A stretch of 64,000 nt of DNA from a virus (IMGVR_UViG_3300008262_003210); one strand, 5' to 3'. Positions 29,931 through 48,091 are shown, counted from the stretch's first letter. Numbers and translations are program-made. The notes: generated by a model from the letters alone, not told the origin.

Positions 29931-30878
29931 ATGCCAAAATACAAATTTAAAAATTCAAATACAGCATCAACTGTTCCTAGCTCTTTAGTAGCAGGAGAAG
30001 TTGCATTTAATCTGTCAGACGGAAGAGGTTGGCAAGGAAATAGTGCAGCATCAGTTACAAAAATTATAGACACAGTTGGTAAACAGGCAGCAAATAATGT
30101 AGCTATAACCGGAGGTTCTCTTGCTGTAACTAGTGTTGGTGCTACAGCTCAGGCCGCAGCAGTTGCAACTTCAACTACAATTGGCGGAACAGCATTGGCT
30201 AATATATCTTCAGATCCAAGATCTGTTGCCACAAACGCTGTTTTAACTAATTATGCAGCTCAAAATTTAGCAGTTGAAGCTGGATCAAAGTTAAAAAATG
30301 TCTTTACATACACTGGCGGAACAAATACCTATACAAAAAGCGGCGATGATGTTAGAATAATACATGTAATAGTCTGCGGAGGTGGCGGTGGTGGCCGTGC
30401 GTATGCCGAATCAGGCGGCGCCGGCGGGTACGCTGAAAGAGTAATAGATGCTACTGGTATAACAACTGTTACAGTAACAGTTGGTGGCGGCGGAGCAGGC
30501 GGGGCATATTTTGGATTTAGCCCCGGCGGATCTACAACTAGTTTTGGAGGATTTGTTTCAGCACCAGGAGGTGGTGGCGCAAATGCTCACATACAGCATA
30601 ATGGTGGTTTAGGTGGACTAGGATCAGGCGGACAACTAAATGTGTGGGGAGGTGGCGGTGGTGGCCACAACAATCAAGATCAATATAACGGTAACGGTGC
30701 TCCCGGACACGGTGGAGTAAGCTTCTTTGGCGGCTCTCAACCTAGTGGGCACGGTGGTCAACAACCATCAGATGTAGCAGCTTGGGGTTCAGGTGGAGTA
30801 GCAACTAACCCAGCCCATAACGGCCAAGGCGGCAGAAATGGCAAGGGCGGAATTTGTATTGTTTATGAATATAAATAA
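29931..30878 (+). CDS. Tail-fibre-like protein with Gly-rich C-terminal domain (315 aa), paralog 3
   Basis: VPSSLVAGEVAFN N-terminus; KNVFTYTGGTNTYTKSG...GICIVYEYK C-terminus. Confidence 0.75.
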   Translation: MPKYKFKNSNTASTVPSSLVAGEVAFNLSDGRGWQGNSAASVTKIIDTVGKQAANNVAITGGSLAVTSVGATAQAAAVATSTTIGGTALANISSDPRSVATNAVLTNYAAQNLAVEAGSKLKNVFTYTGGTNTYTKSGDDVRIIHVIVCGGGGGGRAYAESGGAGGYAERVIDATGITTVTVTVGGGGAGGAYFGFSPGGSTTSFGGFVSAPGGGGANAHIQHNGGLGGLGSGGQLNVWGGGGGGHNNQDQYNGNGAPGHGGVSFFGGSQPSGHGGQQPSDVAAWGSGGVATNPAHNGQGGRNGKGGICIVYEYK

Positions 30879-30896: not shown

Positions 30897-31292
30897 ATGA
30901 AAAGAGCATTAGTTGATAAAAGATTTTGGACTGTATGTCAAATACTAGGACCAGACGAAAACGAGTTTGAAACAACCTCAGATTTTATCTGGGTTGACTG
31001 CCCTGATAATTGCGAATCAGCCTGGGGATACGACGAAGACACAAGAGAATTCACAGACCCACATGCTCATGCAAGGGACGAATTTGGAAATCCAATTGAA
31101 CCATTTTACATGCAAAGAATGAGAGCATATCCTCCCATGGGTGATCAATTAGATATGTTGTTTAAAGAAATAAGAGATACTGGTACAATTTCTTCGGACG
31201 GACAATGGTTCCAATCCATACAGACTGTCAAAGATACTGTTCCTAAACCAGGTGCAGAAGGCGATCCTGGAAATTACCTTCCTCCTACCTAA
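30897..31292 (+). CDS. Probable tail-fibre assembly/chaperone-like protein (131 aa)
   Basis: Acidic; WVDCPD...W.YD and R..AYP..GDQLDML motifs typical of small proteins that follow phage fibre genes. Confidence 0.55.
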   Translation: MKRALVDKRFWTVCQILGPDENEFETTSDFIWVDCPDNCESAWGYDEDTREFTDPHAHARDEFGNPIEPFYMQRMRAYPPMGDQLDMLFKEIRDTGTISSDGQWFQSIQTVKDTVPKPGAEGDPGNYLPPT

Positions 31293-31889
31293 TCACCATA
31301 CACCAAAGTTAACTACACATCTGTGTCCGGTAGTTGGCCTAGTGCTAGTATGATAACGAGAGCCATCAAATACGATGGCTCTTCCTTTTTTAGGTGTAAT
31401 ACTCTTAAAAATTTGTAAATTTTCTTTTTTAAGATCATCAGGCGGAATGTCTCTAAAAGTTTTGTCATATATTACAGTATCTCCGTCGCTGTCTGTAACA
31501 TAATATAGAACTACAATATGACTAACTTCTCTATCAACATGCGGATGGTCTAATGCACTTTCTAAATTTGGCAGTGGGATAGTTAAAAAACTTCTTGCAG
31601 CAATAACTTCGTTTACATGAAATTTAATTTTTTCGCAAGCATTATATACAATAGGTAAAACTAGTCCGTATCCAGGACTGATAATTCCAGCAGTCCTGTC
31701 ATAGAATTTATGAGCAAATGCAGGTTTAGCAACTGCTACATTTAATTCGTTAAATTTTTCATTGTCAAATGTTATATCTCTCATATAATGCCAAGTTATA
31801 TTATTTCCCAGCATCTGAGTTTCTATCAAATCTTGATATTGTTTAGGAACAATATCATCTAATACAACAACGTCGTCTATTATAAGCAT
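31293..31889 (-). CDS. Fe(II)/2OG dioxygenase (HxD type), 198 aa
   Basis: PHVD...VLYYV.DSDGDT...KGRAIVFDG..YH.S..P....R.V.N. Confidence 0.8.
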   Translation of the reverse strand: MLIIDDVVVLDDIVPKQYQDLIETQMLGNNITWHYMRDITFDNEKFNELNVAVAKPAFAHKFYDRTAGIISPGYGLVLPIVYNACEKIKFHVNEVIAARSFLTIPLPNLESALDHPHVDREVSHIVVLYYVTDSDGDTVIYDKTFRDIPPDDLKKENLQIFKSITPKKGRAIVFDGSRYHTSTRPTTGHRCVVNFGVW

Positions 31890-32461
31890 ATTGAATTAAA
31901 TGAAATAACTATCCTTGGTTGCGTTCCTTGATACACGTCGGCATCGTGTAGCAACATACTAGGAAATAAAACTAAATTTCCAGGAGAACAATTAACAGTA
32001 AAATGTTCATCGGCAAATTCTAAACCAAGTTTTCTTTCCATGTAATAAGGCAAGTACCAGTTATTACTTCCTCCTTTATTGTTTTCACTATCAACATAAA
32101 AAATACCAGACCAAGTTGAACCAGGGTGATGATGGGGTTTGTGATACCCGCCACATCTAGTAACATGTGCCCAACTTTCGGTAATTACTGTTCTGTAATT
32201 AGTGTTGTTAAAATTATTAATTAATGCAGTAGATTCTTGTATCAACCATAATTTTAAATTATTAATATCTGTTTGTTTTTCTAAAAAATCAAACGATGAC
32301 TCCCATAAATTTAATTTGGCATTAACTGCTATATTAGATTCTACAGTATTAGGGATTTCAGCTTTAAGGCAAGTCTCGACTATTGTTTTCTTATTATCCT
32401 CAAATTCTTTCCATGTACTTGTAAGTAAAGGAATTTTTCCTAATAGCGTAAATTGTCTCAT
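31880..32461 (-). CDS. Putative Fe(II)/2OG dioxygenase, TIGR02466/PF13759-like (HxH), 193 aa
   Basis: ESW.......YH.PHHH....WSGIFYV...G.LVLFPS.L.H...R..ISFN. Confidence 0.8.
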   Translation of the reverse strand: MRQFTLLGKIPLLTSTWKEFEDNKKTIVETCLKAEIPNTVESNIAVNAKLNLWESSFDFLEKQTDINNLKLWLIQESTALINNFNNTNYRTVITESWAHVTRCGGYHKPHHHPGSTWSGIFYVDSENNKGGSNNWYLPYYMERKLGLEFADEHFTVNCSPGNLVLFPSMLLHDADVYQGTQPRIVISFNSICL

Positions 32462-33195
32462 TTATCTATCTCTAAATCTTTAGATTCTAAAATGTATTTT
32501 ACTTTATTTTTAATAAAACTTCTCCAACCAAATCTTGATAGTTTGTTTAAATTAAGAAGATTAGAAAATCTTTTATGATCTTTTTCAGTATATGATTTAG
32601 ACTCTGCGTGTATAGTTTCTCTTTTATAAGGAATCACTTGCACTAACGGATCACCCATTTTAATTAATGTATCTTTTTTTTCAAAAAACATTAGATTTAT
32701 AGGATTGCGATTTAGCATACTATCTGTATCAACTATTGCGGGTAATGCTTGATAATTTTTATTGTGATAAAAATAAGGCAACCACATTAGGCCATACCCT
32801 TGTTCGGTTACAATACTCCAGGGGCTATTTAATTTAATAGACATTCGTAATTCAAACTGATTGCCAATAGTATCTCCTATCTGTTCCGAAGAATGAATTT
32901 CATACCCGTAATCAGTATTGCTCATTTCTATTTTTACAGAATCCTCAAAAAAAGATACTTGTATATCGCACCATGCAGGAATGATATAACCTGCTTTTGT
33001 ATAATTTGATATAGCCGGGCATTGCCTAATTGTTAACTGACTTGCAGATTTACTGTGGTCAAAAGGACAAATCTCACCAACCGGCAGATTTTTAAATTCG
33101 TCAGGAAAGTATTTTTCTGCCGGAATAACTGGAGCATAGTTTCTTATAGCCCAATCAGGACAACTAAATGTTATTTGATTATTACTCATTGGCAA
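32458..33195 (-). CDS. Conserved hypothetical protein, dUTPase-like beta fold (DUF6065-like), 245 aa
   Basis: QCPA....GY.IP...D; K..SPW...T..GY; IKMGDPLVQVIP; paralog of 39555..40256. Confidence 0.5.
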   Translation of the reverse strand: MPMSNNQITFSCPDWAIRNYAPVIPAEKYFPDEFKNLPVGEICPFDHSKSASQLTIRQCPAISNYTKAGYIIPAWCDIQVSFFEDSVKIEMSNTDYGYEIHSSEQIGDTIGNQFELRMSIKLNSPWSIVTEQGYGLMWLPYFYHNKNYQALPAIVDTDSMLNRNPINLMFFEKKDTLIKMGDPLVQVIPYKRETIHAESKSYTEKDHKRFSNLLNLNKLSRFGWRSFIKNKVKYILESKDLEIDK

Positions 33196-33772
33196 ATATA
33201 TCCACTGATATTGTCAGTGTCATAACTAGCCTATTTTCTTGACTAGAATTTATTTCAGTTTTATGATGTAAAAATCCAGGGAAAAAGATCACATCATTCT
33301 GGTTAACTTCTAAAATAGTCCAGTCATTTTTGTTATTTTTTGGAAAACCAGAAAATGTATATTGTAACGGATCTTTAAACATTATATTTCCGCCTAATTT
33401 AGGTTGTTTTAAATAGATAACAATATTTTGATGACACATTGCATGATCATGCTCATCTGTCCATGCGCCTGGGGGATGTAAGTTTACCCAGCTTCTGTGT
33501 ACACGTCTTGGACGGTCAACAAAATTAGATGTATCCCACACTATTTTACTTTGTTGAATTAACCACTCTTTTAGATCTTTACAAACAGGATCATTAATTA
33601 AGTTGTTTATAGTACTGTATGTAGACTTGCCACCGTTTTTTTCTAAATTATGATTTGAATTTTCATTAAAGTATGTCAAAAATTTACTAGAAATATTTGT
33701 TAAATCTCCGGGATAAACAGATTTATGTATTAAACTAGGCCAAAGATTTATGTGTTCGATTGATGACGTCAT
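33182..33772 (-). CDS. Putative Fe(II)/2OG dioxygenase, TIGR02466-like (HxH), 196 aa
   Basis: RSWVN...G..T.EHDH......YL...GG...F.DP...FFP..L.H......R.V. Confidence 0.8.
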   Translation of the reverse strand: MTSSIEHINLWPSLIHKSVYPGDLTNISSKFLTYFNENSNHNLEKNGGKSTYSTINNLINDPVCKDLKEWLIQQSKIVWDTSNFVDRPRRVHRSWVNLHPPGAWTDEHDHAMCHQNIVIYLKQPKLGGNIMFKDPLQYTFSGFPKNNKNDWTILEVNQNDVIFFPGFLHHKTEINSSQENRLVMTLTISVDIFANE

Positions 33773-33773
33773 A

Positions 33774-34361
33774 TTATTCTACCAATTCGATCCACGTTGA
33801 CATAATGTATTTTGTTCCAGACAGCGGAGGATTTCCTCGATGAGTGTGTGTATAACTTGCAGGCGCAATAATCATTGTTCCCCGTTTTGGCGGGATTCTT
33901 ACAGACTGATATAAAAATTCTGTTTCCCCACCATGTTCAATATCATTTAGATATAGCAACACAAATGCCAGTCGTCTTGCTGTTCCTATGTTTGCATGTT
34001 CACAATGCCATACATGATAGCCTTGCCTAGGTTCTGTTTTTTGTATTTTTACAGATTCACTTATGGCTTGTTTTGATATACTATTCAAAACTCCAATTTC
34101 ATTAGAATACGATAAAAAATTAGCTCTAATTGATTGATTAAATTCTTTTAAAATATTACTGTTGATATTAATTATAAAATCGTCAACCTCGTTTTCAACA
34201 AAATACTTTTCGTCGTCTTTGTTAATTTTTAAAGCACCGTCGTGTTGCTGTCGATTTAACGTTCTCCCTTCAGATTGCATTCTTTCAAAATGTGCAATCG
34301 CTCTATTACAGAAATCATCTGTTACAGAATTTGAATAAACTTTTATAAAAAAATCATTCAT
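33774..34361 (-). CDS. Fe(II)/2OG dioxygenase, prolyl-4-hydroxylase-like (HxE), 195 aa
   Basis: KIQKT....GYH.WHCE...R.L...LYLND...GGETEF.YQ....P..G.....P..YTH.HRGNPP....KYI...W. Confidence 0.85.
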   Translation of the reverse strand: MNDFFIKVYSNSVTDDFCNRAIAHFERMQSEGRTLNRQQHDGALKINKDDEKYFVENEVDDFIININSNILKEFNQSIRANFLSYSNEIGVLNSISKQAISESVKIQKTEPRQGYHVWHCEHANIGTARRLAFVLLYLNDIEHGGETEFLYQSVRIPPKRGTMIIAPASYTHTHRGNPPLSGTKYIMSTWIELVE

Positions 34362-35943
34362 ATTTGTTTTTTAAATATTGATATAATGTCGTAGCAGAAT
34401 CAGCAAATTCGTTTCTTTCGGCTAGGTCAGCATCCCATTTGTGCCAACATATATCCTTTAAGTAAGTCACGTACTCTGTATTAGCATTCCTAAACAACGT
34501 TCTTTTTAGTAAACTACTATCAATTGGAAACAGATTCATTCCTGTGGCAATCATCATAGATCCGCCCATTTCTATATCATATAAATGACTTACAAATTTT
34601 CTATGTATTAGACTGTCTATTCCGTAAGTTGCATAAACACCTAACTGCATAGTTTTAGGATAATTACGTTTTTGAGCAGCTTGCCAATAAGGTGTTTGAT
34701 CTCTGTGACTCATAGCATAATGTAAGGCTACAAATTCTGCAAACGCTCTAAAATCTCCTCTACATGCTTCGTTAAAAGCAGTTTTATCAAACTGACTTAC
34801 CGAGTTTCTATTAAGTATTGCAACCAGTTTTAATAAAAATTCATGAACTGTATACAAACCGTTAGACTCTAATGGTTCAATAAAGCCGGCAGCAAGTCCA
34901 ATTCCACAAACATTTTTGTGATAAATTTCTTTGTGTATTCCTACTCTCATCTTAATGTTTTTAAATTCTAAAGAGTCAATAACAGATTTAGGAATTGGAA
35001 CTTCTCTTTCGTTTTCTAAATATTGTTTAAATTCTTCAAGAGCAGCATCGTCAGAAATAAATTTATCACTATAAACATATCCAGTACCAGTACGACTCCA
35101 TAATGGAATGTTCCAAACCCACCCATTTCCTATAGCTGTGCAATTAGTAAATGGCTCTAGTTCTTTCTCTTTATCTTGAAACGGGATACGTGTTGCCCAT
35201 GCGCTGTTGTTAGGTAATAAATCATTATAACTTTCAAACGGTGTGTGTAATGCTTTATCTAACAATATAGATTTAAAACCGGTGCAATCTAAGAATAAAT
35301 CAGCAGTAACTATATCACCGTTATCTAATACTAAAGACTGAATTCCGTCGTCTTCCACTTGTACAGACAACACTTCTGCTTGAATGTGTACAACTCCTTT
35401 TGGAATAGCGTATGAATCTCTTAACCATGCACCAAACTTTGCCGCATCAAAATGATAAGCAACATCTCTATCAAAATTCCAGCCTGGTATTTCGTTGTTT
35501 TTATTATCGGTAATTTTATTTTTATTAACTAATGCCATGGCCGGAAAGAATGTATCGGCAAAATTTGAGACAGGTATCTCAGGTTGCATTGCTTTTCTTG
35601 TGTACCAGTCATTAACTCCGTAAGGAAAGAATTTATTGTCAAATAGCGGGACTCCAAACGGGTAATGAAATGCCCCAGCATTTTCTTTGTAAAAATTAGT
35701 GAATTTGATGCTCATTTTATAACTAGCATCACATTGTTTCATCCAGTCGTCGTCTTTTATGTCGAGGTCATGCAGCCATTCGTTTATCTGCCCAATAGTA
35801 CTTTCGCCTACGCCCACAGTTGGGACGTTAGGGCTTTCGATTACATAAATTTCTTTGTTTGGAAAATTTTTAATTAGCGTTGCTGCGCTCATCCATCCGG
35901 CGCTGCCGCCGCCTACTATAACAATTTTATTAACAATACTCAT
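34354..35943 (-). CDS. Flavin-dependent tryptophan halogenase homolog (PrnA/RebH family), 529 aa
   Basis: GGGSAGW FAD motif; VGVGEST; CDASYKMSIKF (catalytic Lys as in RebH K79); GWVWNIP; FIEPLESNG (Glu346-equivalent). Confidence 0.9.
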   Translation of the reverse strand: MSIVNKIVIVGGGSAGWMSAATLIKNFPNKEIYVIESPNVPTVGVGESTIGQINEWLHDLDIKDDDWMKQCDASYKMSIKFTNFYKENAGAFHYPFGVPLFDNKFFPYGVNDWYTRKAMQPEIPVSNFADTFFPAMALVNKNKITDNKNNEIPGWNFDRDVAYHFDAAKFGAWLRDSYAIPKGVVHIQAEVLSVQVEDDGIQSLVLDNGDIVTADLFLDCTGFKSILLDKALHTPFESYNDLLPNNSAWATRIPFQDKEKELEPFTNCTAIGNGWVWNIPLWSRTGTGYVYSDKFISDDAALEEFKQYLENEREVPIPKSVIDSLEFKNIKMRVGIHKEIYHKNVCGIGLAAGFIEPLESNGLYTVHEFLLKLVAILNRNSVSQFDKTAFNEACRGDFRAFAEFVALHYAMSHRDQTPYWQAAQKRNYPKTMQLGVYATYGIDSLIHRKFVSHLYDIEMGGSMMIATGMNLFPIDSSLLKRTLFRNANTEYVTYLKDICWHKWDADLAERNEFADSATTLYQYLKNKYE

Positions 35944-35973
35944 GTTACTCCAATCTAATGTATATAATAATTA

Positions 35974-36621
35974 TCACATTGTAGAGTCTACTATAACATT
36001 TCCTGAAATTGTTATTCTATGCTTGTCTGAAGATAAAAATGGGTAAACCAAATGTTTCATTTGAGACGGAAAAAATAAAACAGTACCTTCATACTTGCTT
36101 TCTGCAAAAAACGGTAACATAGTAATTTCCCCAAATACATTTGTATAGACAAAATTAAACGTTGTTGCTAACGGGTAATTAGAGCTAGAAACACAAGGCA
36201 TCTCCATCTCTGTTTTTAAATCATACGGAATGTTTACCCAAATAACAAAACTAAAAACACCAGTATGATCATGTAACGGATTGTATTCGGTTTTCTTTTG
36301 AAAATTAACCCATATAGGATCCAACTTAAAAGATATTGTTTTTACGGACGGGTGTTTTCTTAGAATTTCAGACTTATAGTTCCAGGCAAGCATATATTCG
36401 CCTGCCATTTCAAGCACAGTAGATTCTATAAGTGTTTGACACCTATCTAAATAAAATTGATATTCTAAATGGCCTGCTAGATTTTTTTGAATTTTAGGAT
36501 GGTCTTCAATTGCATTTTCAATAAGTGCAACTTCTTCTTTAATTTTTAAAAGAATATCATCAGGTATAGTAGCTATAGAATAGCCATAATTTGGAAACGC
36601 TTTATGTTCAATTTTCATCAT
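35974..36621 (-). CDS. Putative Fe(II)/2OG dioxygenase, TIGR02466-like (HxH), 215 aa
   Basis: WVNFQ...EYNPLHDH.G.FSFVIW...EG..LFFPS...H.VYPF......RI.ISGN. Confidence 0.8.
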   Translation of the reverse strand: MMKIEHKAFPNYGYSIATIPDDILLKIKEEVALIENAIEDHPKIQKNLAGHLEYQFYLDRCQTLIESTVLEMAGEYMLAWNYKSEILRKHPSVKTISFKLDPIWVNFQKKTEYNPLHDHTGVFSFVIWVNIPYDLKTEMEMPCVSSSNYPLATTFNFVYTNVFGEITMLPFFAESKYEGTVLFFPSQMKHLVYPFLSSDKHRITISGNVIVDSTM

Positions 36622-38102
36622 TTAGAAAAATTAACAACAGTACATGAGTTTCTAGATTTTAAAATTTCTAAACATTCTCTATGAGGAATCATAGTTTGTT
36701 CTTCAATAAACTTTTTAAAATCTTTTTGTAGTTCGTTTATAGAAAACAACATGTCTTCATTTTGTTGCGACATCATATTTTTTATGCTTTCTGCATCAAG
36801 CATTTTTAAACCGTGCATGACTAATAACCAATTTACTTCTCTAAAAAGCAAATATGGTTTAGTAAAGAACGTTGTATTAGGCCCAGACATTTTAAAATGC
36901 TCTAATGTTTGCTGATTAAATTCAGTTAATTTTAAATTTTTACAATCCTTCCAAAAAGCAGAATCACTTCTGTTAGTTATATAATGCAATTGAACAAAGT
37001 CAATAATATTTTTAGCTACGTCTTCAAAATCGGAATTATATTTGTCAATTAATGGCTGATTGCCGTGTTCATAGTTTACTAAAGAGTTAGCAATGCCAAA
37101 TGCTTGCTGAATAGAAGTTCCTATACTACTTGCCTCTAACGGTTCAACAAAACTTCCTGCAAGTCCAACAGAAATGCAATTTTTAATCCAAAATTTATTT
37201 ACATATCCTGCTGTAAATTTAAATGTTTTAGCAATATTAATAGGAGAGGAAAAAACTGATTGTGCTTCTGCTATGGCTTGTTCGTCTGTAATAAATTTAT
37301 CACAATATACATAACCATTACCAAATCTATCAATAGTTGGTATTCTCCACATCCAACCAGAACTCATTGCAGTACTAAGGGTGTGTGAAGGAATATCTTC
37401 TATTTTTTCTGTAGGAAATGCAAACGCACTATTCATTGGTAGATAGTCAGAACAGTCTACCCATGTTGCACCTAATTTAGAAGATATGACACGTTTAAAT
37501 CCACTACAGTCAATAAAAAAATCTGCTGAATATTTTCCAGATTTGCCAACTAGTTCTGAAACATGACCTGTGTTATCTAAGATAACATCGTCTATTGTAT
37601 CATCAATAATTTTTATATCTCTGATTAAACATTGCTTAATAAGATAATCGTTAAGTTTCATTGTATTGAAATGAAACTGATTAACGGTTCCCTCCAATGG
37701 CTCGTAATGAACTGATTTATGAAGGTTATCAGGAATAATATCGTGATGTGTTTTTCCTTCAGCAATCATACCTAAATAAATGTTATTAGGACCATTATAG
37801 CTTTCTTTTAAAAAATGACCATGGACACTATGAAAATAATAGTCATCGTCTCCATTCCAATTTATAAATTTTATACCAGATTTAAATGTTGCATCTGTTT
37901 CTTTTAATAATTCTTGGATTGAAATTCCTGCAACCTGCATAAAGCGAGCCCAATGTTCAGTTGACCCTTCTCCAACTCCAATAATGCCAATGTCAGATGA
38001 TTTTACTATTGTAATATCAAGTTTTCTGTAGATAGATTTTAATATAATTGCGTTAACTAGTCCACTAGTCCCACCGCCAAGAATTATTAAATTGTTAATC
38101 AT
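36618..38102 (-). CDS. Flavin-dependent tryptophan halogenase homolog, 494 aa
   Basis: GGGTSG; IGVGEGS; ATFKSGIKF; GWMWRIP; FVEPLEASS. Confidence 0.9.
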   Translation of the reverse strand: MINNLIILGGGTSGLVNAIILKSIYRKLDITIVKSSDIGIIGVGEGSTEHWARFMQVAGISIQELLKETDATFKSGIKFINWNGDDDYYFHSVHGHFLKESYNGPNNIYLGMIAEGKTHHDIIPDNLHKSVHYEPLEGTVNQFHFNTMKLNDYLIKQCLIRDIKIIDDTIDDVILDNTGHVSELVGKSGKYSADFFIDCSGFKRVISSKLGATWVDCSDYLPMNSAFAFPTEKIEDIPSHTLSTAMSSGWMWRIPTIDRFGNGYVYCDKFITDEQAIAEAQSVFSSPINIAKTFKFTAGYVNKFWIKNCISVGLAGSFVEPLEASSIGTSIQQAFGIANSLVNYEHGNQPLIDKYNSDFEDVAKNIIDFVQLHYITNRSDSAFWKDCKNLKLTEFNQQTLEHFKMSGPNTTFFTKPYLLFREVNWLLVMHGLKMLDAESIKNMMSQQNEDMLFSINELQKDFKKFIEEQTMIPHRECLEILKSRNSCTVVNFSK

Positions 38103-39564
38103 ATAGTTTTTTCCATTCTTCTGTTGATAAACAATCTTTTGTTATCAAATTTATTTCGTTTCGCAACTGATTGTATTCGGTTGTGACTTTTTCTAATATG
38201 TTTTCGTGTTTAGAATTTAAAATATTCTTCAACATTGTTTTATCAACTAAATTATAAGCCTGTAATACAACCGCATAATTTTCTAAAGAGTATGCAACTC
38301 CAAAATCATAAAAATTTCCATTTTTAATAGCATCTAATTTAGATTGTAAAGATTCAGGAATAGAACTAATGGACAAATGCCTATTCCAAAATTCTGTGTC
38401 ATTTTTTCTATTTCTATAGTGTAAAGAAATAAAATCTACTGTATCATTAACAATATCTTCGTATGCAGAATTAAACCTGCTTTGTCCGTGCAAATGAGTT
38501 TGCTTGCAAGGGCTCCATGTTTCAGAAAGTATTCGCAACATCATGGCTATCATAGTGTGTCCGCCAGACCCAAGCGGTTCTAAAAATCCAGAACTGAGTC
38601 CTATAGCAATTACATTTTTCTGCCAAGGATTCATGGCCATTTCAGGTACCCACGATGCCTTTGCAACTAAATCAACAGTTTTACCAAGTTTGCGTTCAGC
38701 TTCTAATTGTGCTTGTTCTGAAGATATTAGAGATTCATCGTAGACATATCCATTCCCACTTCTTGATTGTAAATCAATATTAAATCTCCAACCATAATCC
38801 ATTGCAATCATGTTGCTATAGGGCTGTAAGTTTGATTTGTCCCACCAAGCAATAACACTATTAGCTGTAAAATATTTAGAAAAATTTTTAAATTTAATTC
38901 CTAATTCTTTTTTTAACAGCAGTTGATTAAATCCGCTACAGTCAATAAAAAAATCAGCTTCAATGTCTTGATTTTCTAAAATTAATTTTTTAATACCAGT
39001 TTCGTCTTGTAACGATGATTTATATTTTGATAGAACTAGTTTTATATCTAAAGATAATCCTATGTTTTTAAAATAATCAGCGTTCTTTCTGCTATCAAAA
39101 TGATACATAGGTCTAACTACAAATCCGTTTGCAGTAAATGGTGTCAATCTATTTTCTAACAGAGCTCCTGAAACGGTAGTTTTGTGTAAAGGTATATCTG
39201 CAGCTAACAATCCTTTAAGTAAGACATTGTCAGTTCCAAATTCAGGATTGTAATAATCCCACCGATTTCTGTAAGAAGAAAAAAGAGGCTGTATAAATGT
39301 AGTGTTGTTTGCACCCCACCCTACAAATTTACCTCCTAATTTTGGTAATGCATCAACTTTTTTAATCCAGTCGTTTGTGTCAATGTCTAAAAAATCTAAC
39401 AAATCAACAAAAGGCGCTGTGCAACTTTCTCCGGCTATGATTGGCGGGTGTTTTGGATCTTCTATAACTGTAATATCTAAGGACGGCCAAACTTTTTTGA
39501 AAAAAATAGCTGATAGCCAGCCACTTGTTCCTCCGCCTAGTATAGCAACAGTTTTTACATCCAT
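38095..39564 (-). CDS. Divergent flavin-dependent halogenase homolog (about 489 aa; start re-called at MDVK)
   Basis: GGGTSGW; IIAGES; ALPKLGGKF (Lys kept); WxWxIP replaced by WRFNID and FLEPLES by FLEPLGS. The 39564 start gives a short overlap with the upstream gene, like others in the array. Confidence 0.8.
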   Translation of the reverse strand: MDVKTVAILGGGTSGWLSAIFFKKVWPSLDITVIEDPKHPPIIAGESCTAPFVDLLDFLDIDTNDWIKKVDALPKLGGKFVGWGANNTTFIQPLFSSYRNRWDYYNPEFGTDNVLLKGLLAADIPLHKTTVSGALLENRLTPFTANGFVVRPMYHFDSRKNADYFKNIGLSLDIKLVLSKYKSSLQDETGIKKLILENQDIEADFFIDCSGFNQLLLKKELGIKFKNFSKYFTANSVIAWWDKSNLQPYSNMIAMDYGWRFNIDLQSRSGNGYVYDESLISSEQAQLEAERKLGKTVDLVAKASWVPEMAMNPWQKNVIAIGLSSGFLEPLGSGGHTMIAMMLRILSETWSPCKQTHLHGQSRFNSAYEDIVNDTVDFISLHYRNRKNDTEFWNRHLSISSIPESLQSKLDAIKNGNFYDFGVAYSLENYAVVLQAYNLVDKTMLKNILNSKHENILEKVTTEYNQLRNEINLITKDCLSTEEWKKLYD

Positions 39565-40256
39565 CGTTTTGGCCTCAATTTGTTTATGGCGTTGTGTATT
39601 TTCCAACTAAGTTTAGGCATATAATGTTTAAGAGTTAAACAACTGTTAACTGCATGTTCTAATTTTTCTGTTCTTTCTATTTGTTTAAGTACAAATTTAT
39701 CACTTGGATTGTCAGACCTAAATCTAATGTAGGCCATTGGTTGACCTCGTTTTAAAATAACTTCATCTTCTAACATCTCAATAGTAGTTACAATAGGTCG
39801 CTGCCAAGAGTAAATGTTAAACATACCTGGAATGAGTCTCCAAGAATGATCAATGTGATTAAATGGGGGAATAAATTCTACATAAACAGGTTGATCCGCT
39901 ACAAATACAAAACTATTGCTAATGGCTACAATGGGTCTACCATTGTCAGGATCAAAATCACCCCAATGAGTTCTTACCATTGCATCAGCAGCATCTTTGG
40001 GTAAATTTGTGCTGATTACTTTGTTATATTTGTCCCAGTGTAAAACTAAATCTACTGTATTTTTTAACACAAATGTATTTTTTACATATTTTACAAATGC
40101 AGGACATTGATGATAACGAGAAGTTGAGTCGTTCCAAGTATCTAGTGGCTCTAGATCAAAATAGGCCAAATCAACCCACCCATAATAGTTAAGTGCAGTA
40201 TTTGTAGTTCGAATATTTTTTTCAAACCACGGACAAAAACCAATTTTAATAGTCAT
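39555..40256 (-). CDS. Conserved hypothetical protein, dUTPase-like beta fold (DUF6065-like), 233 aa
   Basis: QCPA......F.L....D; LIPG.F.I..W.RP; LKRGQPMAYIRF; paralog of 32458..33195. Confidence 0.5.
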   Translation of the reverse strand: MTIKIGFCPWFEKNIRTTNTALNYYGWVDLAYFDLEPLDTWNDSTSRYHQCPAFVKYVKNTFVLKNTVDLVLHWDKYNKVISTNLPKDAADAMVRTHWGDFDPDNGRPIVAISNSFVFVADQPVYVEFIPPFNHIDHSWRLIPGMFNIYSWQRPIVTTIEMLEDEVILKRGQPMAYIRFRSDNPSDKFVLKQIERTEKLEHAVNSCLTLKHYMPKLSWKIHNAINKLRPKRWM

Positions 40257-40464
40257 AGTTAGATGACCAAAATCCTTGCGGGCAGCTACCGGCTTTTAAA
40301 GCGCACTTAGCACTTACTGGACTGCCTACAATTTTACATATACCCTCGTTTTTGTTTTCATATGCATAACAATTTTTACAAATTTCCATTCTTTGTTCGT
40401 ATATTTGCATAGAAACGCGAAGCACTCTTTCGTCTAAGTGCATCTGTCTTGGTTTTTTAATCAT
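40246..40464 (-). CDS. Small Cys-rich protein (72 aa), putative metal-binding
   Basis: R..ICKNC...........C.........C......CP...W; overlaps both neighbours, so it is embedded in the operon. Confidence 0.6.
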   Translation of the reverse strand: MIKKPRQMHLDERVLRVSMQIYEQRMEICKNCYAYENKNEGICKIVGSPVSAKCALKAGSCPQGFWSSNYDY

Positions 40465-41176
40465 TTTTTAAACTCCGTTTCATATGATCTAGAATAAATT
40501 CTAAATTTAAAATTTTATTTTGTAACTGATCAATTTCACTAGTATGTGGTTGATAGTCTATTACATAGTTGCTGTCTGACGAAAGATATTTTCCAGAGTA
40601 ATTAATGTTGTAACTCATTACAATTCTAGGGTGATTAGAAAGATTTTCTTTTGTCTTATGTCTAATCCATCCCGGAAATAATATTAAATCTCCTGTCGAA
40701 ACTGGAATAGAAGTTTCTATTTTATTTTCAATAGCAACTCCATACGGTATATGGGTTAGTCCATATTCCATTGGATTTATTAATACTAAGTCTCCAGAGT
40801 TTTTTTCGGCTTTTATGTATAATGTAGCAACTATTGGATATAAACTATGAGAATGTTCTACTGTAAGACTATTATTATAATGTATATTTGACCAACATTG
40901 GTCAATCCTAGGTTCTAACCTAGGATCAATATCTAATATTTTCCAATATAATTTAGTATGTTGTAGAACAATATCTGATACTGTTTTTGAATATTCTTCT
41001 AGATGTAAATTACAGTCAGTGGAATAAGTGCTCACTCCACCGTTCATTTCTAAATTACTAGTTTTAGGGGAAGATTGCTTTAATTTAACCTGTAGATTTT
41101 CTTCAAGATTACTAGTATCTATTTGATCTAAAATATTAACTTTATATATTGGTAAAGAGAATAAATTGATAATCAT
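40457..41176 (-). CDS. Putative Fe(II)/2OG dioxygenase, TIGR02466-like (HxH), 239 aa
   Basis: CWSN......T.EHSH......LYI....SGDL...NP...GDLILFPGW..H......RIV.SYN, plus a short coiled-coil-like C-tail. Confidence 0.8.
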   Translation of the reverse strand: MIINLFSLPIYKVNILDQIDTSNLEENLQVKLKQSSPKTSNLEMNGGVSTYSTDCNLHLEEYSKTVSDIVLQHTKLYWKILDIDPRLEPRIDQCWSNIHYNNSLTVEHSHSLYPIVATLYIKAEKNSGDLVLINPMEYGLTHIPYGVAIENKIETSIPVSTGDLILFPGWIRHKTKENLSNHPRIVMSYNINYSGKYLSSDSNYVIDYQPHTSEIDQLQNKILNLEFILDHMKRSLKND

Positions 41177-41182
41177 CGCGCT

Positions 41183-41770
41183 TTATTCCAAGTACCATTT
41201 TTTACTCACAAAAGTTTTAAAAGAAAGATATGTTCTAAGTTTTTTGCAATCTCTATTAGGTGCAAGGCCCCTGTGAGGTATGTTACTATCAAAAACTAAA
41301 CAAGTATTGGGCATTGGGTAATAGGTTGCAATAACATTTCCGTCTTGATCAAAAAACTGAAATTCTCCTCCCCATTCTGGATTCCATTCCTGATTAGGGA
41401 AAAAACAAAAAGTCATAAATCCGTCGCCCATGTCGTTAAACTCTACTTCTTTATCAGTGTGTATTCCGCCATCTAACCCAAATGTTTTTCCTCCGGCAAT
41501 AGCACTATAAAGTTTAAATTGATATTTTTTGGTACTAGGCTCAAGTTCATTTAATTTATTAATGATTTCGTAAAACGCCTGTTCTCCTACCATGTGATAC
41601 AATGTTAAATCGGCTTGCCAAAACATTGTTGTATCCTCGTCCCAAACGTCAGGATTTGTAACTCTGCCATATTGCCAAATTGGTTTTTTCAATTCAGCAA
41701 CAATGTTTACAAATGTATCATTTCTCAGTACATTTTCTAAATAAAATATTTCAGACATGGGTTTGTTCAT
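41183..41770 (-). CDS. Fe(II)/2OG dioxygenase (2OG-FeII_Oxy_3-like, HxD), 195 aa
   Basis: G.IHTD...W..EWGGE..F...N..L.FDS...H.G..P.......R....FK. Confidence 0.85.
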   Translation of the reverse strand: MNKPMSEIFYLENVLRNDTFVNIVAELKKPIWQYGRVTNPDVWDEDTTMFWQADLTLYHMVGEQAFYEIINKLNELEPSTKKYQFKLYSAIAGGKTFGLDGGIHTDKEVEFNDMGDGFMTFCFFPNQEWNPEWGGEFQFFDQDGNVIATYYPMPNTCLVFDSNIPHRGLAPNRDCKKLRTYLSFKTFVSKKWYLE

Positions 41771-41771
41771 A

Positions 41772-42404
41772 TTAGTTGATATCCTTATTGTGTCTATTTA
41801 TGGCCTGTTTTGCCATATTTTTAGAATTTTGATTAGACCATTCTGGGAAATTATGCTCCTCCGCTGCTAGGCTAGACAGCAAATTTGTGTCTAAATCGTG
41901 TTTGTAATTTGCATAACTGCCATGTTTTTTAACATAATGAAGAAATGCTTGATACTGATACTGTTGCCCTTGCATAGGGTGTCTAAAATGCATAATTTCA
42001 GTTCCTTTGTACAGTAGCACATCACCAATGTCTAAGTCAACACTTATAACTTGTCCGTTATCTACTAACCAAAATGGCCATATGTATTTTTCATAATTCA
42101 ACGTTAACGTAAGACTAATTTCACAACTTGGTCTATCAGTGTGTGGTGGAAGACTATCATTTTCTTGATATATCCTAGCATATGAATAGCATGGATATAA
42201 TTCTTCTCCTACTATTGTTTCAACATTTTTTTGTATTTCTACTAATTCATCATTAAATATTCCGTAAAACGCAGGACTTAACGTACACAACGGATCAGGA
42301 TTTCGATATACTCCTCGGCCAAATAATGTATTAAGCCTGTTGGCCATCTCTACACATTTTTCTTTTTCAAAGAAATTTTTTAAAATCTTATAATTTTCTT
42401 TCAT
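41772..42404 (-). CDS. Fe(II)/2OG dioxygenase (HxD), 210 aa
   Basis: YSYARIY.....L.PHTDRPSCEIS.T...GD..LY.G....H.R......Q.FLHYV. Confidence 0.85.
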   Translation of the reverse strand: MKENYKILKNFFEKEKCVEMANRLNTLFGRGVYRNPDPLCTLSPAFYGIFNDELVEIQKNVETIVGEELYPCYSYARIYQENDSLPPHTDRPSCEISLTLTLNYEKYIWPFWLVDNGQVISVDLDIGDVLLYKGTEIMHFRHPMQGQQYQYQAFLHYVKKHGSYANYKHDLDTNLLSSLAAEEHNFPEWSNQNSKNMAKQAINRHNKDIN

Positions 42405-42975
42405 TTTGGCTAAGAGTTATATTAAACGATAAACTAATTCTTTTATGACTTGTATTATTATGAAACACGGCATGTTCTAAAAAACTTGGAAATAACAAAA
42501 TCTTTCCAACTTCTGGTTTATAGTTAACAGCGTTATCAATATTGTAAGTTAGCTTATGAAATCTATTAACTAAAGAAGGATTTCTAAAAACAATATCTCC
42601 GTCATCACCAGAAGTTTGGTGATAATAAACACCAGACATGTCACTATCGCCGTGCAAATGATAATGTTGAAAAGAATGTTCGCCTCCTATATTACACCAT
42701 GATTCTCTAACATTAATGTTTAAATTAGAATAGTTTAATCGTATTAAGAATTCCCTACAATGTTTTTTTATTTCTTCTAATAGAATTGGTGTTTCAGATA
42801 AAACGTGTTCGTAATTACCATACTTAAAAGTAGTTGAAACTGTGTCTCCCCAAGGATTTACAAGCCGTGCTCCATGTAAAGTAGACACATACTCTGAAAC
42901 TTCTTTTTGAATTGAATCTATATTTTCAACAATAGCAAAATATATAGGAGTAGGAAAAAAATATTCAACTGGCAT
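42388..42975 (-). CDS. Putative Fe(II)/2OG dioxygenase, TIGR02466-like (HxH), 195 aa
   Basis: ESW.N......Q..HLH....SGVYY...G.I.F.NP...G...LFPS.L.H.V......RISLSFN. Confidence 0.85.
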   Translation of the reverse strand: MPVEYFFPTPIYFAIVENIDSIQKEVSEYVSTLHGARLVNPWGDTVSTTFKYGNYEHVLSETPILLEEIKKHCREFLIRLNYSNLNINVRESWCNIGGEHSFQHYHLHGDSDMSGVYYHQTSGDDGDIVFRNPSLVNRFHKLTYNIDNAVNYKPEVGKILLFPSFLEHAVFHNNTSHKRISLSFNITLSQNERKL

Positions 42976-43591
42976 TGGATTCTATTGACAAGTTAAAAGG
43001 AATACTTATTTTATTTTTTAATTGTTTATGACTATCATATCCATGATATACATTAGATTTAAACAATACTAATCTTCCAGGAACACAGTCATATGAGATT
43101 TTAGAATAATTCATCGGGTTATGAACCCAAGGTTTAACCGGTTCGTATGCATCTCTGTAAGGCGAACCAAAACATATCTTTGCACCTGGCGGAGCATCTA
43201 CATAAAATACTCCGCTTATAGCAGCCCTGCCAACAGTACTATGAATATGTTGAGCATGATAATCATATGGACCAATAGAATTTAACCACATGTTTGTAAA
43301 AGCCAGTTGATTCTCTTTTAAAGAAGGATATCCTAATACTTCACAAAATAGTAATGTTTGTTTTCGAATAGCTAAACATAAATCAGAAAATCTAACATCA
43401 TTGTATAAATGACCGTATACGTCATGCCAAAAAGAAGTATGCAGACTACTTTCACCAAACGGATGAGGATCCTTTTCAATGTCTTTCAACATTTCCAAAG
43501 CAATCTGTTCGTAGTCGGCAAGTTTATCCATGCAGTTAAGGTCTGAATAATAGACCAATGTTGGAAACCACGAATCAATATAATGTGTCAT
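42965..43591 (-). CDS. Putative Fe(II)/2OG dioxygenase, TIGR02466-like (HxH), 208 aa
   Basis: NMW.N......H..HIH.....ISGVFYV...GRL.LF.S...HG.......KISI.FN. Confidence 0.8.
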   Translation of the reverse strand: MTHYIDSWFPTLVYYSDLNCMDKLADYEQIALEMLKDIEKDPHPFGESSLHTSFWHDVYGHLYNDVRFSDLCLAIRKQTLLFCEVLGYPSLKENQLAFTNMWLNSIGPYDYHAQHIHSTVGRAAISGVFYVDAPPGAKICFGSPYRDAYEPVKPWVHNPMNYSKISYDCVPGRLVLFKSNVYHGYDSHKQLKNKISIPFNLSIESNAS

Positions 43592-44175
43592 TTAAATCTT
43601 GGCCCTACGACCCAGGAAACTAAACTTTTTCTTAAACCTTCTGTTACCGGAGTTACTTCGTGAATTACATAACTGGGGAATACAATTAAAGTTCCTTTAG
43701 TTTTAGGAGCAATTACTGGATCCTTTGTTGAAAATCTATAAAATAATAATTCACCTCCTTGGTAGTCGGCTTCATCTGAAAGTTGAATAGTTAAACTTAA
43801 TTTTCTAAAAAGATTATATTTGTAACCGTCGTCGCTGTGTGGTTTGTAATGACCTAGTGTATCTGAATGGTATTCAGCGTACTGTAAGTCTTCCATTTCT
43901 GTTAAATCGTATCTGTAAAATCTGTCATTCAACTGTTGAATAATATTTGAAAGTTTCATGTAAAGATCTTTGGATTCTTCGTTAGTTTCAATCCAAGAAA
44001 TTTTATTCTTACGAATTTCTTCGTTAGAAATTCCGGCTTCTAAAGTGCCATCGCCCTGCATAGTACTTTTGCTAGCCAGCATTTCTACTAATTTTATTTC
44101 ATCATCGGTAAGAACGCCTGGTGCGTATGCAAATGGTTCATTTGCGTAATTTAAATCTTTTATAAACCAGCTCAT
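43588..44175 (-). CDS. PKHD-type (PiuC/YbiX-like) Fe(II)/2OG hydroxylase, 195 aa
   Basis: LQ...Y.....GHY..HSD....RKLS..IQLS....Y.GGEL...KGT..VFPS...HEVTPVT.G.R.SLV.W..GP.FK. Confidence 0.9.
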   Translation of the reverse strand: MSWFIKDLNYANEPFAYAPGVLTDDEIKLVEMLASKSTMQGDGTLEAGISNEEIRKNKISWIETNEESKDLYMKLSNIIQQLNDRFYRYDLTEMEDLQYAEYHSDTLGHYKPHSDDGYKYNLFRKLSLTIQLSDEADYQGGELLFYRFSTKDPVIAPKTKGTLIVFPSYVIHEVTPVTEGLRKSLVSWVVGPRFK

Positions 44176-44744
44176 TGTTTCAATCCTGTATCAAAACTAA
44201 CCACATATCGTTGATTAGAAAAATTATTTTCAGTGTAATGCATCAGCCAACTAGGAAACAATATTAAATCTCCCAGTGCTACTTTAAAATTAAAGGCTTG
44301 TCTGTTGTATTCAGTTAATCTTGTTGAAATTTCATTAACCTTAAAAGGTTGACATGGGTTATCAAATATTAACTCGCCCGAATCGTCATCTGCTTTGCTA
44401 TAAAAAACACCACTTATTAGACTAAGTTCGTGCCTATGAGGTTTAATTGTGCTGCCATCTCTGTATATGTTACACCAACTATAAGTTATTTTACAAGGAT
44501 GCAATCCTAATTGATCAGCATAAAGATCTACACATTCCTGTATAGCATTTTTAAGATCTAAATTAGAATCTAAAAAAGAAGATGAGTTGCTTCTTAAACC
44601 TTTACCATTAAACAACTTATGATAAGTGTTAACAAGTTCAGTTTCTTCAATTTTTTTACTAATTTCTTCTAAGTTAGCTTTGCCTAACAAATTATAAACA
44701 TTTATAACGGTTGGAAATAACCAACATTCTGCTTTTTTAATCAT
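44172..44744 (-). CDS. Putative Fe(II)/2OG dioxygenase, TIGR02466-like (HxH), 190 aa
   Basis: SWCN......I.PHRH..S.ISGVFY....SG.L.F.NP...GDLILFPSWL.H.T......R.V.SFD. Confidence 0.85.
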   Translation of the reverse strand: MIKKAECWLFPTVINVYNLLGKANLEEISKKIEETELVNTYHKLFNGKGLRSNSSSFLDSNLDLKNAIQECVDLYADQLGLHPCKITYSWCNIYRDGSTIKPHRHELSLISGVFYSKADDDSGELIFDNPCQPFKVNEISTRLTEYNRQAFNFKVALGDLILFPSWLMHYTENNFSNQRYVVSFDTGLKQ

Positions 44745-44745
44745 T

Positions 44746-45195
44746 TTAAATTAAGTCCACTAAATCAAATATTGTTTGTAATTTTGTTCTAATAGTTTTA
44801 TTACTAAAACTATTTCTCAAACCTTGATGCAATGGTTTAGGAGCGTAATCAACATTTACCCATGCGTAGCCGGTGTGTTCTTGGCTGAGAATGGGAATAA
44901 ATTCGTTGTCTATTACACAGAGATATGTGTGAAAATTAAAAACTTTGTCGTTTGATACAAACGTCTCTAATGGTATAGTTTTGATTATGTGGGGAGTTGT
45001 GCCTACTTCTTCAGATACTTCTCTTTGAAGTCCTTGCCAGGGATTTTCATGTTGTAGGTTAGTGCCACCTACTAATCCCCAAGTACCAGCATGTTTGCCT
45101 TCGGCTTTTTGTAACAGTAAAAATCTTCGTGTAGATTTAGCGTAGAATAATGCTCCGCTACATACAATCTTATCTGTTACAGTTCTAATCTCCAT
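44746..45195 (-). CDS. Nudix hydrolase (149 aa)
   Basis: Complete Nudix box G-x5-E-x7-REVSEEVG; EH..Y.W near C-terminus. Confidence 0.9.
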   Translation of the reverse strand: MEIRTVTDKIVCSGALFYAKSTRRFLLLQKAEGKHAGTWGLVGGTNLQHENPWQGLQREVSEEVGTTPHIIKTIPLETFVSNDKVFNFHTYLCVIDNEFIPILSQEHTGYAWVNVDYAPKPLHQGLRNSFSNKTIRTKLQTIFDLVDLI

Positions 45196-48049: not shown

Positions 48050-48053
48050 AATG

Positions 48054-48075
48054 ATATTTATCGCTAGATAAATAT
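48054..48075. promoter_or_regulatory. Back-to-back divergent late promoters forming an inverted repeat
   Basis: ATATTTATC-GCTA-GATAAATAT gives GATAAATA on each strand, between the divergent starts at 48049(-) and 48092(+). Confidence 0.7.
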
Positions 48076-48091
48076 AGTAGGAGAACTTAAA

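Follow-up and report, generated by a model that had tools for sequence, protein, structure and literature searches.

A dioxygenase-halogenase array between the fibre-tip and neck genes of a freshwater jumbo phage is very probably an expanded relative of the cyanophage Syn9 cluster

In a 64,000-nt stretch of viral DNA (IMGVR_UViG_3300008262_003210, referred to here as the window), positions 31293-44744 are occupied by an uninterrupted array of genes encoding iron- and 2-oxoglutarate-dependent (Fe/2OG) oxygenases, flavin-dependent halogenases and small accessory proteins. Judged by homology and gene order, this array very probably represents an expanded member of the dioxygenase-halogenase cluster type found in cyanophage Syn9, and it appears to be a hypervariable island located at the fibre-tip/neck junction. 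Clusters of this type have been known since 2010 (PMC2938197), and the original prediction of an undescribed system was therefore not upheld. What is new here is the mapping of the array to a hypervariable site, the sharp drop in sequence identity at its edge, and a cassette of Gly_rich_2 tip, gp40-like, VirX1-type halogenase, DUF6065 and oxygenase genes that is present at 11 loci spread over unrelated phage backbones. The full explanation proposed below, i.e. a Syn9-type array that is expressed late and tailors the fibre tips, is assigned a probability of roughly 0.4.

The listing of open reading frames (ORFs) in the window revealed 18 back-to-back minus-strand ORFs (g01 through to g18; Table 1), as had been described in the original prediction, with junctions lying between a 52-nt overlap and a 30-nt gap (-52 to +30 nt). 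The 52-nt overlap disappears if the third halogenase gene (g09) begins at ATG 39564 instead of TTG 39606. The predicted gene count was likewise reproduced using Pfam, PHROGs, motif searches and structural models of g14 and g18, and comprises 12 double-stranded β-helix (DSBH) Fe/2OG oxygenases belonging to at least three families (seven PF13759, four PF13640-type and one Syn9 gp54-like), three flavin-dependent halogenases and three accessory proteins. Pfam matches were obtained to PF13759 (2OG-FeII_Oxy_5) for seven genes, to PF04820 (Trp_halogenase) for all three halogenase genes and to PF13640, above the gathering score, for g05, g13 and g17; g01 matched PF13640 at 24.4 bits, under the gathering cut-off of 27, and g03, g10 and g14 produced no Pfam match even at E = 10.

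In accordance with the original prediction, Pfam identified no non-ribosomal peptide synthetase (NRPS), polyketide synthase (PKS), ribosomally synthesized and post-translationally modified peptide (RiPP), flavin reductase or transporter family among the 18 array genes. Families of RiPP precursors were also absent from these genes, between which there is no space for hidden ones, g11, which is conserved and Cys-rich, not having been tested as a precursor. No reductase family was found by Pfam anywhere in the window, implying that reduced flavin adenine dinucleotide (FADH2) would need to be supplied by host reductases, and none of the array proteins contains transmembrane-like segments. The oxygenase paralogs exhibit pairwise identities of 20-39% or no detectable similarity, consistent with the mutually divergent, scaffold-less enzyme set that had been anticipated. 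Recent tandem duplication was rejected as the origin of the array, based on the 20-39% identity between paralogs and the placement of the three halogenases in three old clades. A foreign origin deduced from base composition was also rejected: the GC content of the array is 0.32 (compared with 0.40), but its third-codon-position GC content is 0.229 (compared with 0.256), and this small difference indicates that the lower GC content of the array mostly reflects its amino acid content.

The Syn9 cluster was described by Iyer, Abhiman, de Souza and Aravind in 2010 (NAR 38:5261, PMC2938197) as consisting of 10 tandem dioxygenases (nine classical 2OG- and Fe(II)-dependent dioxygenases of at least five families and the JmjC-like gp49), two halogenases and a dUTPase-fold protein; it was termed unprecedented, and a role in secondary-metabolite synthesis was suggested. 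The annotated Syn9 gene order runs from the fibre genes gp32-34 through gp38/39 (annotated as 'tail fiber assembly'), gp40, halogenases gp41/42, gp43 and gp44 to a series of oxygenases ending at gp54. Both clusters encompass divergent tandem 2OG dioxygenases, halogenase, a protein of the dUTPase fold bearing a conserved Cys, and a protein of ~72 aa, and both adjoin Gly_rich_2 and gp40-like genes. BLASTP comparison identified gp53/51 as the counterpart of g01, gp48 of g02, g15, g16 and g18, gp43 of g03, gp45 of g04 and g12, gp50 of g05, gp42/41 of g06 and gp54 of g14, while the tip proteins (fibA-C) correspond to gp38 and the 131-aa protein p131 to gp40. For example, g01 is 29-32% identical to gp51/gp53 (gp53 31.7%, E 2.5e-24) and contains the HVD motif, g14 is 31.5% identical to gp54 (E 2.5e-24), p131 is 32% identical to gp40 (5.5e-11), and fibA-C display 50-58% local identity to gp38 and are also homologous to the tip triple of S-RIM44. 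The likeness of g11 to gp44 is limited to position and size.

Compared with Syn9, the array in the window is larger (12 oxygenases, three halogenases and two DUF6065-like proteins versus 10, two and one, respectively) and lacks BLASTP homologs of gp49 (JmjC/MINA-like), gp46 and gp52. Furthermore, unlike in Syn9, it is opposite in strand to the fibre genes, forms one block with the NUDIX, gp15-like and gp14-like genes, and is located on the backbone of a freshwater jumbo phage. As no JmjC/Cupin_8 Pfam match was present in the window, and S-RIM44 and most of the relatives' arrays likewise show none, the JmjC member was treated as an optional rather than a defining component of Syn9-type arrays.

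The array DNA produced no near match in INPHARED by megablast, and the phage is therefore not a deposited isolate. Its gp15-like protein is 33-37% identical to gp15 of the jumbo phages Phosso, Atu_ph07 and PA5oct, and only ~25% identical to that of Kyanoviridae, while at least 80 relatives were retrieved from IMG/VR by means of gp15 (identity 58-91%). CheckV completeness values of these relatives place the genome size at roughly 370 kb, and lake or freshwater metagenomes containing near-identical DNA come from at least 15 studies. The source of the window is an uncultured, widespread freshwater T4-like jumbo phage.

The gp14-gp15-NUDIX gene order was shown to be conserved in all relatives, regardless of the presence of an array, and the genes that follow it are variable. 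This junction holds one or more genes of the PF13759, PF13640, gp54-like, DUF6065 or halogenase types in 25 of the 40 relatives' loci with at least 5 kb of sequence after gp15. A combination of several such genes that includes a halogenase, variable in order and number, was found in 21 of these 25. In the loci devoid of such genes, a fibre gene directly abuts the NUDIX gene. When whole contigs were considered, a halogenase gene was found in 25 of 49, and none was present anywhere on array-less contigs of 60-111 kb.

Comparison with the two closest relatives (L001 and L002) showed that the backbone proteins (sheath, deoxynucleoside monophosphate (dNMP) kinase, adaptor, gp14, gp15 and NUDIX) are 79-96% identical, as opposed to 24-58% for the best matches of the array proteins and 63% for the giant fibre protein. 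Across the single gene boundary at 44744/44746, identity falls from 79-91% (NUDIX, gp15 and gp14) to 24-58%, and this boundary would thus mark the precise recombination edge of the island. Since the identity of the array proteins is below that of the fibre protein, turnover of the island is at least as fast as that of the fibre genes.

Furthermore, the array was shown to be associated with a particular set of fibre and tip genes. A giant fibre protein that shares the C-terminal ~1000 aa of its counterpart in the window flanks every array whose far end could be reached. In four of these five arrays, it is followed by tandem short tips, four of them in L082 and three elsewhere, and by a single small protein, and in the fifth (L085) proteins of 289 and 557 aa take the place of the tandem tips. 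Three tip types were distinguished, i.e. Gly_rich_2 tips accompanied by a gp40-like protein (the window, L084 and L086), ~320-aa, possibly C1q-like proteins accompanied by an unrelated 217-aa protein (L082 and L083), and a 557-aa Ig-like protein (L085).

Using the gp40-like protein as a proxy query for Gly_rich_2 loci, a recurring gene order was observed, consisting of two or three tandem Gly_rich_2 tips, the gp40-like gene, one or more VirX1-clade halogenase genes, DUF6065 and oxygenases. This cassette is present in Syn9, S-RIM44, L084, L086 and L089-L092, the backbones of which are unrelated, and in three further IMG/VR contigs Gly_rich_2 lies within about 1.3 kb of a halogenase gene. GTDB assemblies yielded four Gly_rich_2 loci, L089-L092, all of which have the cassette and are probably phage DNA. 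L089 is located at positions 97558-118361 of a 188-kb contig (NZ_RMVE01000006.1) in the isolate assembly of Nonlabens xiamenensis 1Q3 and encodes three Gly_rich_2 tips, a gp40-like protein, two halogenases, DUF6065 and oxygenases. The locus may represent a prophage of this flavobacterium or a co-sequenced phage. The cassettes of L090-L092 are found in a Prochlorococcus single-cell genome and on contigs of Euryarchaeota and Acidimicrobiaceae metagenome-assembled genomes (MAGs).

The three halogenases (g06, g08 and g09) are mutually 25-28% identical. Alignments showed that the GxGxxG motif, the catalytic Lys and the Glu of the FxEPLxS motif (FIEPLES in g06) are retained in all three, and that the WxWxIP motif is found in two of them (WVWNIP in g06 and WMWRIP in g08), being degenerate in g09 (WRFNID). 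On the basis of these residues, all three halogenases look catalytically intact. Over its full length, g06 matches the cyanophage Syn10 flavin-dependent halogenase VirX1 (E 1.7e-115; PDB 6QGM; Gkotsi et al. 2019, as cited in PMC8407142), and it is about 40% identical to members of the Syn9/Syn10 clade, whereas g08 and g09 show weaker matches to VirX1 (E 1e-35 to 1e-40). In a phylogenetic tree of 45 halogenases, g06, g08 and g09 were assigned to three separate, strongly supported clades (100/99, 100/100 with 13 entries, and 100/99 with four entries, respectively), each of which contains orthologs from related phages. The g06 clade includes Syn9 gp41/gp42 and both S-RIM44 halogenases, and the subfamilies of g08 and g09 were not represented in the cyanophages compared. 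Because of these separate clades with orthologs in relatives, the halogenase paralogs are best read as old genes that were assembled together, rather than as recent duplicates. The tree also placed the tip-proximal halogenase in the VirX1 clade, whichever tip type is present.

In one relative (L064, positions 8374-10344, plus strand), a 656-aa ORF consists of a ~440-aa halogenase fused to a 2OG oxygenase of the gp54-like (g14) family. This ORF may be a natural Rosetta-stone fusion or may have arisen as an assembly or frameshift artefact, and it hints that the halogenase and the gp54-like oxygenase cooperate. Short (~395-407 aa) ORFs of the Trp_halogenase family that match the Pfam model in two pieces were encountered in G017 (C1:133143-134183), G018 (C1:161767-162807), G020-G022, G002, G004 and G041, and possibly belong to a different subfamily of FAD enzymes. 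In two array-less large contigs, such an ORF is the sole halogenase-like gene and is situated far from gp15.

With regard to the oxygenases, an alignment of the seven PF13759 proteins of the array with 40 homologs revealed a variant triad, in which HxH...H is invariant and the Arg of an R-x-S motif near-invariant, while the PF13640-type proteins and g14 bear HxD/E...H. The predicted structure of g18 adopts a DSBH (predicted local distance difference test score (pLDDT) 88.5), and its only close structural relatives are 3bvc and 2rg4, both uncharacterised structural-genomics proteins; for PF13759 oxygenases, fold comparison gave no separation between protein and small-molecule substrates. The g14 model is likewise a DSBH (pLDDT 86), with the protein prolyl hydroxylases PPHD, PhyA and PHD2 as its nearest neighbours, and residues H88, D90, H139 and R141 are invariant across 13 homologs. 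The two models and the motif alignments thus show the DSBH, the metal triad and the basic 2OG-binding residue. Two PHROG names were found to be misleading: phrog_274 ('DNA endonuclease V') covers g01, Syn9 gp23/51/53 and the Syn33 'denV' oxygenases, and phrog_2954 ('ferrochelatase') covers the g14 and Syn9 gp54 oxygenases.

Among the accessory proteins, g03 and g10 are DUF6065-like according to PHROGs and Atlas neighbours, with a single Cys invariant in 22 sequences. This residue is C59 in g03, which matches phrog_7084 (4.4e-41) and Syn9 gp43 (E 3.3e-14). The structural similarity of DUF6065 proteins to dUTPase is weak (template-modelling scores of 0.45 and 0.62). In Pseudomonadota, DUF6065 occurs fused to Cupin_8/JmjC proteins (Atlas).

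Table 1. Genes of the array and selected neighbouring features in the window
Feature	Position	Strand	Description
g01	31293-31889	-	PF13640-type 2OG oxygenase, similar to Syn9 gp51/gp53; final array gene, convergent with p131
g02	31880-32461	-	PF13759 oxygenase (Pfam 3.2e-17); HxH...H and R-x-S conserved
g03	32458-33195	-	DUF6065-like protein with dUTPase-like fold and invariant Cys, similar to Syn9 gp43
g04	33182-33772	-	PF13759 oxygenase, similar to Syn9 gp45
g05	33774-34361	-	PF13640 oxygenase, similar to Syn9 gp50
g06	34354-35943	-	Flavin-dependent halogenase of the VirX1 / Syn9 gp41-42 clade (PF04820 1.3e-106)
g07	35974-36621	-	PF13759 oxygenase
g08	36618-38102	-	Halogenase, second subfamily (PF04820 9.4e-99)
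g09	38095-39564	-	Halogenase, third subfamily (PF04820 3.4e-74); probable start at ATG 39564
g10	39555-40256	-	Second DUF6065-like protein
g11	40246-40464	-	72-aa Cys-rich DUF6171 protein (Pfam 2.7e-07)
g12	40457-41176	-	PF13759 oxygenase with C-terminal extension; match to Syn9 gp45
g13	41183-41770	-	PF13640 oxygenase
g14	41772-42404	-	2OG oxygenase similar to Syn9 gp54; phrog_2954
g15	42388-42975	-	PF13759 oxygenase, similar to Syn9 gp48
g16	42965-43591	-	PF13759 oxygenase; match to Syn9 gp48
g17	43588-44175	-	PF13640 oxygenase
g18	44172-44744	-	PF13759 oxygenase (Pfam 4.6e-18); first gene of the array, after NUDIX; match to Syn9 gp48
Giant fibre protein	15501-26516	+	3671 aa; C-terminal ~1000 aa common to giant proteins beside relatives' arrays
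fibA-C	27453-28412, 28419-29924, 29931-30878	+	Tandem Gly_rich_2 tip paralogs (PF21722, phrog_863)
p131	30897-31292	+	131-aa protein similar to Syn9 gp40; convergent with the array
NUDIX, gp15-like, gp14-like	44746-48112	-	NUDIX, tail-sheath stabiliser and gp14-like genes; upstream of the array on the same strand
dNMP-kinase-like gene	48945-49628	+	PF21448; between neck and sheath genes; 88% in close relatives

The genes surrounding the array encode virion components (giant baseplate/fibre protein, tips, gp15, gp14-like protein, head-tail adaptor, sheath, tube, head closure and terminase), and the placement of the array inside the virion module was thus substantiated. The three tip paralogs have a common N-terminus of ~70 aa and a C-terminal Gly_rich_2 domain, in which H224, H247, H274, N219, N238, Y194, E161 and E170 (fibA numbering) are invariant and conserved to Syn9 gp38. 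Invariant His, Asn, Tyr and Glu residues are kept by this domain in all loci with the cassette, a pattern reminiscent of a signature for metal binding or for modification sites. The adjacent fibre proteins had been regarded as rich in Trp, Pro and His, which proved incorrect, as they are Gly/Thr/Ser/Asn-rich and contain 0.3-1.8% W, 2.5-4.3% P and 0.6-3.0% H. No collagen-like G-X-Y runs were found in the tips or fibres, except for one short run in fibB.

The 21 genes from the gp14-like gene to g01 are encoded on one strand without any gap of more than 30 nt, and co-transcription of the array with the neck genes is therefore likely, as deduced from gene packing. The T4 late box TATAAATA is strongly depleted, with one match versus 8.65 expected in 64 kb; the sole copy is located at 30870-30877, immediately before the gp40-like gene. 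Promoter-like and terminator-like sites were not enriched in the 30.5-48.6 kb region, and a T4-type late promoter was not confirmed.

Taken together, these data are compatible with a function in which the array tailors a protein synthesized during assembly, most probably that of the fibre tips, by oxidation and halogenation; this function is put forward tentatively. In the proposed mechanism, the array genes would be transcribed late, together with the neck genes, and the encoded enzymes would draw on host 2-oxoglutarate, O2, Fe(II) and halide as well as on host-reduced FADH2. They would hydroxylate and halogenate side chains in a protein or peptide that is synthesized while the virion is assembled, the likeliest substrate being the short receptor-binding tip proteins encoded beside the array. 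Each divergent enzyme would act on a different site, thereby altering the surface chemistry or stability of the tip.

Tip tailoring is favoured because the cassette is linked to tip genes on unrelated backbones and evolves at a fibre-like rate, and because no scaffold or export gene was found in about 25 arrays. It is also favoured by the prolyl hydroxylase-like fold of g14, the open active site of VirX1 and the detection of one 2OG oxygenase in the virion proteome of a cyanomyovirus (PMC12801897). As presented in PMC8407142, VirX1 has a large, accessible active site and a very broad in vitro scope, with no associated biosynthetic gene cluster and no known natural substrate. The PBCV-1 prolyl 4-hydroxylase and mimivirus L230 are viral protein hydroxylases that act on virion or collagen-like proteins. 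These enzymes would represent a functional analogy for tip tailoring, from which the window differs in that its tips and fibres are essentially devoid of collagen-like runs. A more far-reaching version, in which the array is a virion-tailoring system that produces halogenated and hydroxylated tips or giant-fibre C-termini, and in which island turnover diversifies tip chemistry against hosts, is considered doubtful.

Several observations weigh against tip tailoring. The closest characterised halogenases work on free small molecules, Trp, Pro and Tyr are not enriched in the fibres or tips, and the g18 fold is equally near to small-molecule enzymes (HygX, PolD, TlxI and SnoN) and to protein prolyl hydroxylases. 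Arrays of like family content flank three unrelated tip types, L028 and L055 have the same giant-fibre C-terminus but no array, and in Syn33 the Gly_rich_2/gp40-like pair is accompanied by one or two oxygenases ('denV' and one other), with no halogenase nearby. No literature on hydroxylation or halogenation of phage fibres was found, and modified residues have never been reported. In addition, late co-transcription was deduced from gene packing alone, as no promoter or terminator signal stood out, and traces of RNA were confined to one estuary metatranscriptome, in which contigs of 184 nt (on g06) and 161 nt (on fibC) were detected; these contigs are near-identical to the window and could represent DNA carry-over.

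The fibre substrate proposed in the original prediction is accordingly supported in part: synteny ties the array to the tip genes, while the three tip types, L028/L055 and Syn33 argue against it. For the same three reasons, strict co-variation between array and fibre type was rejected. Family content does not track tip type, but the presence of an array and of a tip-proximal VirX1-type halogenase does track the tip cassette. A further counter-example is L036, with only two oxygenases.

Tailoring of a secondary metabolite, as published for Syn9 by Iyer et al., seems unlikely for this array. According to this explanation, a free amino acid, small peptide or host metabolite is successively hydroxylated and halogenated, yielding a bioactive or siderophore-like compound that aids infection or the virion. 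The Syn9 proposal was derived from bacterial neighbourhoods with NRPS, TonB receptors and SapC (PMC2938197), and it agrees with the use of free substrates by all characterised halogenase relatives and with the inclusion of HygX, PolD, TlxI and SnoN among the fold neighbours of g18. The bacterial JOR/JmjC neighbourhoods combine the same oxygenase families and one to three Trp halogenases with these NRPS, TonB and SapC genes (PMC2938197); the window has the combination of halogenase and DSBH enzymes in common with them, but lacks TonB receptor, SapC and JmjC genes and places the enzymes in a virion context. Moreover, scaffold, activating and export genes are absent from the array in the window and from roughly 25 related arrays examined, and the conserved siting beside receptor-binding tip genes is left unexplained. 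The cassette also occurs on very different assemblies (a Prochlorococcus single-cell genome, Nonlabens and freshwater MAGs), and a common host precursor would therefore need to be universal.

The co-transfer of the enzymes with receptor-binding tips and the fibre-like evolutionary rate of the array would also be expected if the enzymes were directed at the host, modifying host proteins or cytoplasmic precursors of the surface receptor recognised by the co-inherited tips. Possible effects include superinfection exclusion, reduced sticking of progeny to debris or hydroxylation of a translation factor, and the g14 fold is nearest to that of the EF-Tu prolyl hydroxylase PPHD. This explanation is nevertheless judged quite unlikely, since all array proteins are soluble, without signal or transmembrane segments, and could therefore reach only cytoplasmic targets, and since expression, to judge from the packing with neck genes, probably comes at a late stage for taking over the host.

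Variable islands within conserved structural modules are also known from the hyperplastic auxiliary metabolic gene regions of cyanomyoviruses (Millard et al. 2009; Sullivan et al. 2010, PMC3037559), which contain one to five oxygenases and one or two halogenases per genome, unlike the 15 enzymes in one block observed here. In these genomes, oxygenases, a 'ferrochelatase-domain' protein and prnA are sporadic, with one to five oxygenase copies scattered in 14 of 16 cyanomyoviruses, for which functions linked to 2OG levels and NtcA, or to repair, were proposed (PMC3037559). That the array has no common pathway, and that independent oxygenases (acting in 2OG/succinate balance, nitrogen status or AlkB-like repair) and halogenases merely accumulate by recombination at a permissive hyperplastic site, would fit those proposals and the differences in content and order between close relatives, about half of which are without an array, but is very improbable given that a set of VirX1-clade halogenase, DUF6065, PF13759, PF13640 and gp54-like genes is found repeatedly, and in one and the same order, on backbones that are unrelated, that the three halogenase subfamilies are each conserved, that a halogenase-oxygenase fusion exists (L064), and that draining 2OG would not call for as many as twelve divergent enzymes.

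Genes for halogenases and small 2OG oxygenases rank with the commonest unexplained 'auxiliary' genes of aquatic myoviruses. The array described here demonstrates that clusters of the Syn9 type are not a cyanophage peculiarity, as one of the largest forms is present in an abundant freshwater jumbo phage, and the comparative arguments make the question of the substrate testable in Syn9-like isolates. If the tips proved to be unmodified, the secondary-metabolite explanation would gain weight. Conversely, if the tips were found to be modified, they would be the first viral structural proteins known to be halogenated enzymatically and would provide a natural substrate for VirX1-type viral halogenases, revealing both a further level at which host range is determined and a novel class of halogenases that act on proteins.

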